Virus record (IMG/VR): IMGVR_UViG_3300045256_000127
DNA length: 18,490 nt
DNA from: a virus
Taxonomy: Duplodnaviria; Heunggongvirae; Uroviricota; Caudoviricetes
Strand: one strand, 5' to 3'
Part shown: one piece after another, positions 9,091 through 13,215 of the stretch
How the letters are laid out: each line of letters begins with the position of its first letter
Numbering within the stretch: the first letter of the stretch is position 1
The notes under the pieces: model-generated
The model's database searches: none
Told to the model about the DNA's origin: nothing
What the model saw: the letters and a program-made list of their open reading frames with translations, nothing else
Program-made: the position numbers and the translations under genes

Positions 9091-9285
9091 CTAGACTAAT
9101 TGGTACTTTCGGTCCATCGTCATTCGCATGCCGTCAGTCTGCAACAGGTAGCTGAGGGCGTCGATGACCTGCCACTCCTTGACACCTGGGTCAAGGAACA
9201 ACACCTTCTGAATGACTTCCAGAGGCCGCATCGGGTTCGCCGACATCGCCTCTTTTACCTTCGAGAGAACGTAGTCATTTTTCAT
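9091..9285 (-). CDS. Small hypothetical protein (64 aa, possibly winged-helix-like)
   Basis: GGAG RBS, overlaps the end of the upstream gene, and fills the gap in the minus-strand run. Confidence 0.65.
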   Translation of the reverse strand: MKNDYVLSKVKEAMSANPMRPLEVIQKVLFLDPGVKEWQVIDALSYLLQTDGMRMTMDRKYQLV

Positions 9286-9958
9286 GCTTGAACTCCCGGT
9301 TGAAGAACTCCTGAAGGTCGGCGTTAAGGTTGGCCTGATAGACGGTTACGTCAAAGCCAACACCCTTCGCCAGCTTCTCCAGGGCGTCCATTTTCTTGAT
9401 CCACGGTGAGAGCAGCAGGTAGTAGTGGGATACCTTGCCGCTGCTCACCCAATACTTCATCTTCGGACCGTCCACCGCCTCTTTTGTCTTATCGAAGGTC
9501 GGCTCGCCGTCGAACTTCTCGAACAGGAACCGCTTCGTGCAGTCCAGTTCTTTCGTGATCTTCGGGTTGACGACCAACGGTCGGGGCGGCGTATCAGCTT
9601 CAACGTGTGTGGCCTTCTTCTCCATCAGCCGCTTCCAGACCTGATACCGCACCCACGCCTTGTCGCCACAAATGCCGTTCGGCTCGACCCTTGCGTTGTA
9701 GGTCTTGAGGACGTGCAGGTTGGCCGAGATGTAATCCTTCAGGCTGCTCTCGTCGAGCAGGCCACGGGTTTCTCGGATGAGCTTCCAGCAGTGCTTAAAA
9801 AGGTTGCACTTCCTCGGGTCGCCTTTGTCGGGTAGCTTGGCGAGGCGTTGATCTGGGAAAATTCTCTTACAAAGCTCCTCCCAGATGCAGGCGGCTCGGA
9901 ACGCCTTCGCCTCGTCGGGGGTCATGTTCCATTCGAAGATCGCCTGCATCCGTGTCAT
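9275..9958 (-). CDS. Hypothetical protein, remote resemblance to T4 gp59 helicase loader
   Basis: 227 aa. The CDS itself is well supported. Function is tentative, based on LFKHCWKL..LKDYISANL..GDKAWVRYQVW and WVSSGKVSHYYLLL. Confidence 0.7.
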   Translation of the reverse strand: MTRMQAIFEWNMTPDEAKAFRAACIWEELCKRIFPDQRLAKLPDKGDPRKCNLFKHCWKLIRETRGLLDESSLKDYISANLHVLKTYNARVEPNGICGDKAWVRYQVWKRLMEKKATHVEADTPPRPLVVNPKITKELDCTKRFLFEKFDGEPTFDKTKEAVDGPKMKYWVSSGKVSHYYLLLSPWIKKMDALEKLAKGVGFDVTVYQANLNADLQEFFNREFKHEK

Positions 9959-9961
9959 AGT

Positions 9962-10378
9962 TCACCTTACCGGATCGAAGTTCGCCGTCGTTCCGTATGA
10001 GTCCGCAAAGTCTTTGCAGACTTGGTATTTACTCTTGAGGACATTCGGGCGACCTTCGAAGTATAGTTCTTCGTTGGACTCGCCGACCCGAATGAACCCT
10101 TCATTCAGTAAAAGCCGCCTGATCTCGTGTCGAGCATCAGTGCAGGCGATTTCGTAAATGTGCCACTCGGCGTTGTGGCTGCCTTCTCTGTCGGCAAGTT
10201 CTGAGTGGTCCCTGTGCATCTCGTCGAGCTTGCTGATGATATCGCCGATCTTCGGGACTTTCTTGATGAAGTATGGGTTTTCGGACACAATTTCGATATG
10301 CTCGTAGAGTTGGCACTGGATGAACTCACCGTTCGGGCAGAGCCATCCTGCCACTTTGGCAGCCAAAGGGTCTGGCAT
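9962..10378 (-). CDS. Hypothetical phage protein (138 aa)
   Basis: AGGAGG lies 6 nt before ATG 10378. GWLCPNGEFIQC..YEH and EGFIRVG motifs are typical of phage orphans. Confidence 0.8.
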   Translation of the reverse strand: MPDPLAAKVAGWLCPNGEFIQCQLYEHIEIVSENPYFIKKVPKIGDIISKLDEMHRDHSELADREGSHNAEWHIYEIACTDARHEIRRLLLNEGFIRVGESNEELYFEGRPNVLKSKYQVCKDFADSYGTTANFDPVR

Positions 10379-10586
10379 GGGCAACCTCCTTGTTTCGGGT
10401 CTAAAGTAACACTTCTTACGGAATGCGCCAAGTCCGCTTGTTTCTCTTCAAGGATTTTGGTAGAAAGATCGATGATACAGAGCAGGTGGCTCTCTCCACC
10501 AGACACAACCGGCTTGCAGTCGCCAGGGCGTGTCTTAGAAGAAAACCTGGGATTACGAATGTTTTCGTAACACCGGCCAGTCTCCA

Positions 10587-10877
10587 ACCGGGGGACTAAG
10601 GGCTTGTCCCGACGATCAAGGTAAGCTCGTACTCCGATACCCTTAAAGCCGAAGTGCTTGTGCGATATATGCCCCGAGGGTGGTCACAAGCTAAGAGTAC
10701 AGTTAGGCGATCATCTAATAGCTGCACTGGACTTTCGTTCAGTTGTTAAATACCAACTCTCGACGCTCCGCACTTAGACAAGTGCCGGAGATAACTTCTC
10801 TACGGCTGTAGCTTTGCGCTATATCTTAAAAGAGAAGTTATATATCTGAGTTGTATTTAACACCTTCGGCCCCCGGT
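10587..10877. ncRNA. Unclassified large structured RNA candidate (or structured origin/regulatory DNA)
   Basis: Stems read by hand: 10587-10594/10870-10877; 10597-10602/10640-10645; 10648-10654/10864-10870; 10656-10662/10685-10691; 10726-10732/10737-10743; 10744-10759/10848-10862 (1 bulge); 10766-10775/10780-10790; 10791-10801/10831-10841; crossing pair 10629-10634/10695-10700. No plausible CDS. Confidence 0.6.
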
Positions 10878-10896
10878 ATGCGCCCTGCCAACAGTG

Positions 10897-11479: not shown

Positions 11480-11929
11480 ATGGCTGCCTACGGCTACTTC
11501 TACCACGTCACCGATAATCCCAATTGGGCCTTCTCCGTTCGACTCTCGCCTCGGATCACGAACCGATGCGACCAGGACGAGCCGCCGGTCCCCCGCATTT
11601 GCGTCTGCCCGACCGTCGCCGGTTGCTTCATGGCGGCGTGCTACACCGAGGGCTACCGGCGAGTCTACCGCACCCGGAAGAAGGTTCACGCCGTAGAGCC
11701 GTACCGGGTTTACGACTCAAAGGTCACGGGCGAACTCTGGCTGCTCGAACCGACGGACTTCGTTCTGATTCACGACTTCACTGAAGACGACATCGAGCGG
11801 TTCCCCAGGAGCTTCAGTCATTGCAAGACTGACCGGGGGATGATTAACAGCCAGATCGCCGCCAAGAAGCGGCTGATCCAGCACTTCACGAACATCGGAC
11901 ACGAACTGCCGAGGGCACAATGGATTTGA
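11480..11929 (+). CDS. Hypothetical phage protein, possible ADP-ribosyltransferase-like fold
   Basis: GAGG RBS. Motifs FYHVT, PRICVCPTVAGC, VYDSKVTGELW. CDS solid, fold assignment tentative. Confidence 0.7.
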   Translation: MAAYGYFYHVTDNPNWAFSVRLSPRITNRCDQDEPPVPRICVCPTVAGCFMAACYTEGYRRVYRTRKKVHAVEPYRVYDSKVTGELWLLEPTDFVLIHDFTEDDIERFPRSFSHCKTDRGMINSQIAAKKRLIQHFTNIGHELPRAQWI

Positions 11930-13215
11930 TGGAATTCAGTGAAGCCCTGGGGAGAATCGGCGAGCAGTCTGCTATCTACATGTACGCCGATCCGGTCGTC
12001 CCCGACTTCACTACGGGAAACGGGTTCGACCTTCACGTTTTCGGAAGTGGAATCTCAGCCAGCACCGAGGTAAACCCCAAGACCTGCCGCAACATTGCGT
12101 CCATGCTCGACATGGCGATCACCGTCCCCGGCAAGACCCTTCTTGCCTACGACATCAAAAGTACGATCAGTTACATCCGCCATTACCTGAAGAAAGGACT
12201 CAACGTCCAGGGCAACCTGATCGACATCCGCATCGTCGAGAAGTTCATGGGCAAGGACGAGCGGCCCCCTACCTCGTTCGTGGACGCCGTGGCCCGCTCC
12301 CGTGAACTGATGAAAGACAAGTCGTGGGTGCCGCTGTTCAAGAAGCTGCATCAGCCGCTCGCCGTGGAGACGATCCCGGCGATGGAGACGGTGGCCCTGC
12401 TGGACACGGAGGCGAAGTACGCCAAGTGGGGCTGTTACGAAATCGAGGGGCAGACCAACGGGCGGCTGCGGAGCTACAAGGCGTTCGACAAGTCGTATCT
12501 GCCGCACACGCTGTCGGACGACCAGAAGCAGTTCCTCAAGCCACGGGGCGTGAGGGAGAGCTTCCTGTACTTCGACATCAAGAACTGCGAAGTGACGGTC
12601 ATGGGCTGGCTGTCGGGTGACGCCTACCTGTACGATCTAACCCACGGTGAGGCCGACGTATACGCCGCCATCTATAAGGACGTGACGGGCGACCAGTGCA
12701 ACAGCGACAAGAAGCGGGAGATGGCGAAGCTGATGTTCCTGTCGGTCATGTACGGCAGCGGGTCGAAGACGCTCTCGGAGAAGCTGAAGATCAATTTGAA
12801 GGTTGCAGAGGAGTTGGTGGCCCGTATCCACGGGCGGTTTAAGACGACATCGAACTACATGAAGGGCTTGCAGGAGCAGGCCAAAGACGGCCCGGTGACG
12901 GACAAGTTCGGGCGGAAGCGGGAGTACGAGTCCCCGTACATCGCACGCAACGCCGTGACGCAAGCTGCGGCGGCGATGGCGTGCCTAGAGAAGTTGAATG
13001 AAATCCATGCGGTGCTGAAGTCCACTCCGGCTCGGCTCTGCTTATCGGTTCACGACGGCTACTGCGTCGTTAGCCCGACGGATTACCTAAAAGACGCATA
13101 CAGTAAGATTAAGGGCGTCTTTGAGGTTGATTCTAACCTGTGTAATGGGTTAAGATTCAAAGTCGGGTACAGCGTCGGCGACACGCTCGGCACGCTGACA
13201 TCTTTCGGTTCTTAG
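11920..13215 (+). CDS. polA: Short family-A DNA polymerase with degenerate 3'-5' exonuclease region
   Basis: Motif A FLYFDIKNCEVTVMGWLSGD, motif B REMAKLMFLSVMYGSG, motif C LSVHDG, plus YEIEGQTNGRL. 431 aa, with no recognisable Exo I DxE. Confidence 0.85.
   Translation: MDLMEFSEALGRIGEQSAIYMYADPVVPDFTTGNGFDLHVFGSGISASTEVNPKTCRNIASMLDMAITVPGKTLLAYDIKSTISYIRHYLKKGLNVQGNLIDIRIVEKFMGKDERPPTSFVDAVARSRELMKDKSWVPLFKKLHQPLAVETIPAMETVALLDTEAKYAKWGCYEIEGQTNGRLRSYKAFDKSYLPHTLSDDQKQFLKPRGVRESFLYFDIKNCEVTVMGWLSGDAYLYDLTHGEADVYAAIYKDVTGDQCNSDKKREMAKLMFLSVMYGSGSKTLSEKLKINLKVAEELVARIHGRFKTTSNYMKGLQEQAKDGPVTDKFGRKREYESPYIARNAVTQAAAAMACLEKLNEIHAVLKSTPARLCLSVHDGYCVVSPTDYLKDAYSKIKGVFEVDSNLCNGLRFKVGYSVGDTLGTLTSFGS

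Follow-up and report, generated by a model that had tools for sequence, protein, structure and literature searches.

The gap between two divergent gene blocks in this phage DNA is rated as the site of a genuine new RNA family, whose structure is strongly supported and whose function is unknown. The window, that is, the whole stretch of 18,490 nucleotides that was analyzed, is part of a 107-kb IMG/VR virus record (CheckV completeness 21%), in which the RNA is present as a single copy. The family comprises 17 loci on 16 contigs of huge phages, with contigs of up to 459 and 613 kb. What can be observed directly is the conservation of the element, its covarying fold, its fixed position between p227 and a compact family-A DNA polymerase (PolA), and a promoter-like motif on the plus strand. 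The original prediction, made from the letters of the window alone, was of a new large structured phage ncRNA, probably pseudoknotted and belonging to no known family. It is borne out by the negative Rfam searches, the 17 loci and the strong covariation.

The gap extends from 10385 to 10893 and measures 509 nt, between a minus-strand ORF with its start at 10384 and a plus-strand ORF that begins at 10894. Within it lie a probable promoter for leftward transcription, a sigma70-type promoter that points rightward, and a structured RNA of ~410 nt. A gap of ~510 nt filled with stems had been claimed, and all of the stems noted at that time were located in the sequence: ACCGGGGG/CCCCCGGT, the arm of about 15 bp (10741-10760/10848-10865), the 11-bp ATAACTTCTCT/AGAGAAGTTAT, and the pairings GCCGAAG/CTTCGGC and GTACTC/GAGTAC. 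The stretch from 10587 to 10877, originally given as the full ~290-nt extent, folds at -104.9 kcal/mol on the plus strand (z -4.44) and at -101.8 kcal/mol on the minus strand (z -4.04), and none of 200 shuffles was as good in either case. This stretch is indeed well structured, but its 5' boundary was misplaced. The start is now put ~110 nt further 5', at about 10473. One of the upstream hairpins has a loop (10515-10520) that forms pairs with 10721-10726. The full element, 10473-10885, reaches -146.5 kcal/mol, and 0/100 shuffles were as good. Across the family the length of the RNA ranges from 375 to 488 nt, and no ORF inside it is kept across the family. The features are collected in Table 1.

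Table 1. Positions of the predicted RNA, its helices and the neighboring features in the window.
Feature	Position	Strand	Remarks
p227, all-alpha protein, divergent neighbor	9275-9958	-	227 aa
ORF140	9962-10384	-	between p227 and the RNA
Probable leftward promoter of ORF140 and p227	10403-10431	-	inferred, read from sequence; -35 TTGGCG 10426-31, 17-nt spacer, extended -10 TGT-TACTTT 10403-11
Sigma70-type promoter of the RNA	10438-10466	+	TTGTTT, 17-nt spacer ending TGG, TAGAAA
Whole structured RNA	about 10473-10885	+	MFE z -5.22; homologues via covariance models R1-R3
5' domain	10485-10535	+	H1 10485-89/10496-500; H2 10501-13/10522-35
LR, 5' strand	10515-20	+	H2 loop UGCAGU; long-range helix
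Conserved linker	10542-47	+	AAAACC
Hairpin H3	10547-59/10564-76	+	in all members
Hairpin H4	10579-85/10591-97	+	AGUCUCC/GGGGACU; 9 stem variants across the family
PK2, 5' strand	10587-91	+	H4 loop ACCG(G)
Hairpin H5	10603-10620	+	CUUG/CAAG; start of core, helix 1 of core model
Core	10624-10706	+	followed by conserved GUUAGG
Long helix H6	10624-34/10695-704	+	contains GTACTC/GAGTAC
Pi, 5' strand	10639-43	+	within H6
PK1, 5' strand	10648-54	+	within H6
Hairpin Ph	10656-62/10685-91	+	within H6
Pi, 3' strand	10677-81	+	within Ph loop
LR, 3' strand	10721-10726	+	GCUGCA; pairs with H2 loop
3' domain	10727-10861	+	D1, D3, D2, D4; basis MFE
Hairpin D1	10727-32/10737-42	+	
Closing arm D3	10745-59/10848-61	+	encloses D2 and D4
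D2	10767-75/10780-89	+	
D4	10791-801/10831-41	+	inner hairpin 10807-12/10818-23
3' tail	10864-10877	+	two adjacent pseudoknot strands
PK1, 3' strand	10864-70	+	CUUCGGC
PK2, 3' strand	10873-77	+	CCGGU
3' boundary motif	10878-10884	+	(U)AUGCGCC, semi-conserved; same place in about 8/15 members
PolA, compact family-A DNA polymerase	11920-13215	+	Pfam DNA_pol_A E 1.6e-21

As judged from the compared sequences, covariation supports about 14 helices. Four of these (PK1, Pi, LR and PK2) join distant segments or form pseudoknots. In the 5' domain, H2 shows compensatory changes among the relatives. Its loop provides one strand of LR, which occurs in at least eight variants, including GGUAGU/ACUACC, ACGGCAAU/AUUGCCGU, GAUAAUU/AAUUAUC and GGUAAAC/GUUUACC. 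In H3, an A-U pair is replaced by G-C in L018, and the loop GU(A/G)(A/G)GUCUUA is conserved and common to the distant members. A compensatory change from C-G to U-A within the window clade keeps H4 and breaks the 8-bp closing stem that had been proposed originally. The letters of that stem are present, but it is consequently better read as the hairpin H4 together with a pairing of 4-5 bp between the H4 loop and the 3' tail (PK2). The variants of PK2 are ACCGG/CCGGU, AACGG/CCGUU, ACGG/CCGU, CGAG/CUCG and AAGG/CCUU. In H5, six of nine pairs are changed on both sides, and the exact register is uncertain.

In the core, the window has ACCCU/AGGGU as Pi, for which other members have CCCACC/GGUGGG, UCCACC/GGUGGA, CCGGC/GCCGG or GCUCGC/GCGAGC. 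PK1 is GCCGAAG/CUUCGGC in the window, and its 5' strand elsewhere is GUCCCAUGAGU, GAUGCUAUGG(U), GCCUUGGU or GGUGCCAUGG, each with an exact complement ~150 nt downstream. Two features of the original prediction are thereby recovered: the 7-bp inner stem corresponds to PK1 and the crossing GTACTC/GAGTAC pairing is part of H6. Because both H6 and PK1 covary, the pseudoknot is real. PK1 and Pi are true pseudoknots, since their strands alternate along the RNA with the strands of H6 and Ph. In the 3' domain, other complementary sequences are substituted for D2 and D4 in L009 and L018.

Covariation among the homologous loci is strong. The alignment of all 15 members with MAFFT and RNAalifold was too poor, with only 23 pairs recovered; consequently, covariance-model alignments and alignment-free comparisons within and between phages were used. 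In the covariance-model alignment of 13 cores, 24 of the 29 pairs have changed on both sides, among them compensatory changes in 7/7 pairs of H6 and 7/7 of Ph. Core cells are paired in 88.8% of cases, against 67.6% in shuffles (0/500) and 35-46% when the partners are slid by 1-3 columns. In the alignment-free control, the pairing of a phage's own 5' and 3' strands is compared with that of its strand and another phage's, on the basis of the longest Watson-Crick run and 10000 permutations. The observed value was reached by 0/10000 permutations for each of PK1, LR, Pi and H6 (duplex energy z -5.7, -2.9, -2.7 and -5.9, respectively) and by 1/10000 for D3 (z -5.3). PK2 was not significant in a first crude test (1227/10000) and reached 25/10000 (z -2.3) once the H4 loop had been defined. 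Its support is therefore weaker than that of PK1, LR and Pi.

The family was collected with PolA as the anchor. Close relatives (L002, L008, L009, L018) were found through neighboring genes, and in these the gap is 79-87% identical, compared with 59-83% for the ORF140 protein and 79-90% for PolA. A covariance model of the core (R1, 10596-10712) gave matches upstream of PolA genes ~39% identical, in L029 (34 bits), L031 (30 bits) and L035. The rebuilt models R2 and R3 added L037, L028, L033, L032, L034, L039, L036/L040 and L038; the compact PolA that adjoins the RNA in distant members is only 35-40% identical. Sequences outside the model scored up to 83 bits, with 44.7 bits for L037, 38.3 for L028, 31.4 for L033, 29.3 for L032 and 29.4 for L036; weaker yet correctly placed matches were obtained in L034 (19.0), L039 (17.7) and L038 (19.9). 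A family-specific DNA pattern retrieved only true members and one new contig, L063 (52 bits). In all 17 loci the RNA lies on the PolA strand, within the gap between leftward p227 and rightward PolA.

The limits of this distribution were approached from several sides. Exact-pattern scans of 185,579 GTDB species genomes with two family motif patterns gave no match, and BLASTN of the gap against GenBank phages returned nothing. No credible covariance-model match was found in the GenBank huge phage LR756511.1 (PolA 30% identical) or in the IMG/VR loci L041-L056 (PolA 31-33% identical). So far, the family is restricted to one lineage of huge phages. ORF140 was discarded as an anchor, its homologues occurring in many unrelated phage contexts without the RNA. 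One more distant relative, L049 (PolA 32% identical), has an ORF-free gap of 700 nt between a p227 homologue and PolA (L049:2181-2880), in which a TTGATT..TATCTT promoter, a GGUAG...CUACC hairpin and the family-like words GGGUAAGUCUU and GAGUUAGGACGC were seen by eye only; its covariance-model score is 4.6 bits.

Wherever an RNA-bearing locus extends far enough, a p227 protein, 35-89% identical, is found in this position. Its conservation equals or exceeds that of PolA (50% vs 39% in L029, 41% vs 38% in L028). Its predicted structure has a pLDDT of 87, and an invariant GDPRK...RETRG region is present. No family was found for it in Pfam or PHROG, and the fold searches gave no significant match: the best E-value of Foldseek against the PDB was 0.46, and VIA (Z <=5.6, AAA+ lid-like helices) and Atlas (TM <=0.33, including RepA_N clusters) stayed below meaningful levels. 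Only a faint, non-significant likeness to AAA+ lid, DnaD and RepA_N helices can be noted. On the other side lies the replication module, in which PolA precedes a sigma-like gene and DnaB; relatives also have gp32 and RecA farther along. Among the neighboring ORFs scanned with Pfam, only DNA_pol_A, DnaB, OmpA and VWA were detected. ORF140 looks like an accessory gene that is mobile and has been inserted here, with p227 on one side and the RNA on the other. As a separate observation, ORF140 homologues that are 51-83% identical lie in many unrelated phage contexts, where they adjoin genes for a methyltransferase, NAPRTase, ADP-ribosylglycohydrolase or RNA ligase.

Neighboring genes and architecture are the only guides to the role of the RNA, and no partner or activity has been shown. 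On this basis, a stand-alone RNA that acts in trans, or as a component of a ribonucleoprotein, is given about an even chance of being the correct description. The gap would then be the stand-alone gene of a new RNA family of ~410 nt, transcribed rightward by the host RNA polymerase from the conserved sigma70-type promoter. The transcript would fold into a compact, multiply knotted body. Its 5' domain (H1-H4) would be tied by two loop pairings, one between the H2 loop and the linker that follows the core (LR), the other between the H4 loop and the 3' tail (PK2). The core would be an H-type pseudoknot (Pi/Ph) within the long helix H6, and the 3' tail would thread back into this core via PK1. With PK1 and PK2 both formed, the 3' end would be locked by two adjacent pseudoknot helices, a sequestration that is inferred to define and protect the RNA molecule. 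The folded RNA might then serve in trans as a scaffold or partner of a replication-module protein (p227 or the thumbless PolA), or it might be ribozyme-like; it would be neither an mRNA leader nor a DNA origin.

A first alternative is the replication origin. In this case, the RNA would be an origin-associated transcript, acting as a primer or as an R-loop former for the leading-strand start in the manner of ColE1 RNA II or T4 oriF/oriG, and the fold would guide hybrid formation beside the polymerase and helicase genes. This possibility is considered unlikely. In its favor, the RNA lies exactly at the divergence point of the gene blocks, near PolA and DnaB (and gp32 and RecA in relatives), the host-type promoter points towards the replication genes, and the minimum of the cumulative GC skew of the 107-kb record is located ~1 kb to the right. 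The shape of p227 also has a faint, non-significant likeness to RepA_N and DnaD-type initiators, and ColE1 RNA II is itself a structured primer of ~550 nt. However, neither iterons nor tandem repeats nor a distinct AT-rich unwinding block occur in or beside the element, the change of gene direction confounds the GC skew, and the phages encode their own DnaB-type helicase module. The four covarying long-range helices and the sequestered 3' end of the gap RNA far exceed the needs of a primer, and a 3' end tied up in a pair of pseudoknots offers a poor site for extension. Due to the extent of conserved tertiary pairing and the buried 3' end, a folded functional RNA is favored over a primer. The structured origin that had been offered as the alternative from the outset is weakened but not excluded.

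A second alternative is a cis-acting leader, that is, the 5' part of an early rightward transcript that controls the downstream replication genes. Possible modes include ligand or protein sensing, attenuation, and processive antitermination of the type of HK022 put or EAR. There are grounds for such a reading, which is nevertheless considered doubtful. The RNA always precedes the same operon, and no convincing terminator shared by the members is evident after it; consequently, read-through into the downstream genes is possible. The U-rich stretches that follow small hairpins in L029, L036 and L039 could be regulated terminators. However, PolA of the distant members has its own promoter against the ATG: a -10 box lies 6-9 nt before the start codon, often as TGn or with a full TTGnnn -35, and without a Shine-Dalgarno leader. 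Such boxes are seen at L028:9986-10003, L029:9964-10003 and L037:836-874, and also in L033, L034, L039, L035, L036 and L032. Their position suggests, from the letters alone, leaderless expression of the polymerase across the phage lineage. What lies directly downstream of the RNA also varies among members: the window has three small ORFs there, L031 has an additional spacer the size of an ORF, and in L002 the first small ORF is deleted and AT-rich DNA is inserted, the RNA staying intact in all of these cases. Because of the distant PolA promoters and the varying downstream genes, the RNA behaves as its own gene, and it is probably a separate gene rather than a PolA leader. Its length and its four pseudoknot-type contacts are, moreover, well beyond known leaders, and there is no match to a riboswitch family. 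In L002, the RNA and PolA are separated by ~1.8 kb of AT-rich sequence (L002:505-2300), which carries two long direct repeats (around 720-850 and 1575-1700) and a small helix-turn-helix-like ORF (1278-1478) and looks like a mobile insertion.

The separate, folded RNA gene admits a more specific and quite speculative proposal, for which the confidence is low. The RNA could be the nucleic-acid subunit of a megaphage replication-initiation ribonucleoprotein, with p227 and/or the thumbless, exonuclease-dead PolA, and might, for example, recruit or template PolA. If this were true, there would be an RNA-dependent step in the start of DNA replication that has no described phage counterpart.

The reading direction of the RNA also has to be considered, since the Watson-Crick covariation is strand-neutral. 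If the minus strand were the functional one, the element could, for example, act as an antisense RNA or form an extended, structured 5' leader for the p227 operon, which runs leftward. The minus strand of the window clade folds as well as the plus strand or slightly better, and the strand-neutral counts of G.U against A.C (34 vs 36 and 7 vs 5) do not discriminate. Nevertheless, the minus strand is judged to be a very improbable choice. A TTGnnn-17-TAnnn[T/A] motif stands upstream of H1, in the equivalent place, in all 15 full-length members, with a predicted RNA start at about 10473 in the window. In 14 members, the opposite strand of the 200 nt that adjoin the element on its right has neither such a motif nor an extended -10, one weak case excepted; the leftward promoter candidate lies to the left of the element. 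Close relatives keep the block that holds this leftward candidate, in which the 5' copy of ATGCGCC (10423-29) is located, and its GTAACA/TGTTAC recurs in L029. The plus strand folds better in 10 of 15 members, markedly so in distant ones (-148.8 vs -119.2 and -134.4 vs -108.4 kcal/mol). For eight distant members (group 2), the consensus fold of a strand-neutral MAFFT alignment has -34.7 kcal/mol on the plus strand and -23.3 on the minus strand. In D3 and H6 there are seven internal G.U against one A.C; the count from the covariance-model alignment, 44 vs 6, is biased by the strand of the model. The orientation, which had been left unresolved, is now held to be the plus strand with good confidence. 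The tests that are independent of the promoter are weak. In the absence of transcript evidence, the start, end and strand of the RNA remain predictions.

Descent from a known family, as a diverged RNase P RNA, HEARO/IscB omega RNA, group I intron or tmRNA, is supported by word matches only (CGAAAGUCC on the minus strand and loose HEARO-like words) and has next to no chance of being correct. Rfam 15 gave no match for the whole window at gathering thresholds. At E<=10, only a 16-bit match to the L21 leader was obtained (E 3.5, 10497-10545, in the 5' domain), which is taken as chance, and eight distant homologous loci gave nothing at E<=1. The novelty of the element therefore withstands the Rfam comparison, and the judgment by eye that it fits neither tRNA, tmRNA, group I intron nor RNase P agrees with the lack of Rfam and ARAGORN matches. 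Two likenesses mentioned in the original prediction did not hold. The RNase P-like CGAAAGUCC is already CAUAGGUUC in L002, the nearest relative; RNase P RNA (P4 sequences GGAAAGUCC ... ACAGAA) was rejected for want of an Rfam match, the P4-like word being on the other strand and changed in L002. The HEARO/IscB-like words are accompanied neither by a match to Rfam RF02033 nor by any IscB, TnpB or HNH Pfam family among the neighboring ORFs scanned. The tmRNA candidate was dropped as well (none by ARAGORN, which also found no tRNA in the window, and none by Rfam). The same applies to group I and group II introns (no Rfam match, the element lying between divergent genes and not inside one) and to GOLLD, ROOL and OLE (no Rfam match even at a permissive threshold). 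The RNA was not described in the papers covered by a literature search. Yutin et al. 2024 (PMC11348598) describe divPolA1 neighborhoods and mention no non-coding or intergenic element.

Several known systems nevertheless provide useful points of comparison. ROOL, GOLLD and OLE are 'ornate' large ncRNAs of bacteria and phages for which cryo-EM has been reported (PMC12286853). The gap RNA resembles them in being large (hundreds of nt), elaborately folded, strongly covarying and present in phages or prophages, and in being no obvious mRNA leader and having no known biochemical function when found. In contrast to them, it is smaller, has no sequence or structure match to them, and does not stand beside tRNA genes but is fixed between p227 and the compact PolA. 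Like ColE1 RNA II and T4 oriF/oriG, it would be a structured transcript, several hundred nt long, that the host RNA polymerase makes, oriented towards replication genes and with a family-A polymerase nearby. It differs in having no iterons or unwinding element, and neither an RNase H site nor an RNA-DNA junction is known for it. Its conserved tertiary pairing is far more extensive, and its 3' end is held in two pseudoknots. Bacterial RNase P RNA is alike in size, in its long-range pseudoknot helices and in a 3' region that pairs back into the core. However, the gap RNA has no Rfam match, and the universal CR-I to CR-V were not seen in an informal inspection by eye. The HEARO/IscB omega RNA (RF02033) is likewise a pseudoknotted RNA of ~300 nt beside a protein gene it could serve, but the gap RNA lacks the Rfam match, the IscB/HNH Pfam neighbors and the transposon ends.

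To our knowledge, few large, highly ordered RNAs contain several conserved pseudoknots, and new biochemistry has followed from nearly all of the classes found to date. The present RNA is so far known only from very large phages, with contigs of up to about 460-610 kb, and has a fixed place at the replication module, with an unusual minimal polymerase and a conserved unknown protein as its neighbors. It poses a concrete question, namely whether a folded RNA takes part in the start or the control of replication in huge phages. At ~400 nt, the RNA is a target for cryo-EM and probing and a new marker gene for the phage lineage, and its knotted 3' end is of interest for RNA-stability engineering.

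Some minor observations were made along the way. A 19-mer metagenome scan yielded four contigs, all from one sample (Ga0256913), that have only a hairpin word of 19-26 nt in common with the window; according to the covariance model, they are not homologues, and they were set aside. These four contigs share a distinct, conserved and apparently structured motif of ~90 nt with GGAGCCGAA-AUGCCCCGAGGGUGGUCAC, which equals the core-hairpin word of the window (19-26 nt). It is located at L019:1183-1217 (-), L020:574-592 (+), L021:1775-1793 (-) and L025:4332-4350 (-), with a second inverted copy in L021 near 1436 (+). The motif has no Rfam match and adjoins tRNA-like fragments that ARAGORN does not call. 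In the window record itself, the ATGCGC hexamer is strongly depleted, with 3 forward and 3 reverse occurrences in 107 kb against ~33 expected per strand. ATGCGCC occurs three times on the plus strand of the record, and two of these three copies, at 10423-10429 and 10878-10884, flank the RNA as a direct repeat with a spacing of 455 nt. Roughly half of the distant members also have the 3' copy.
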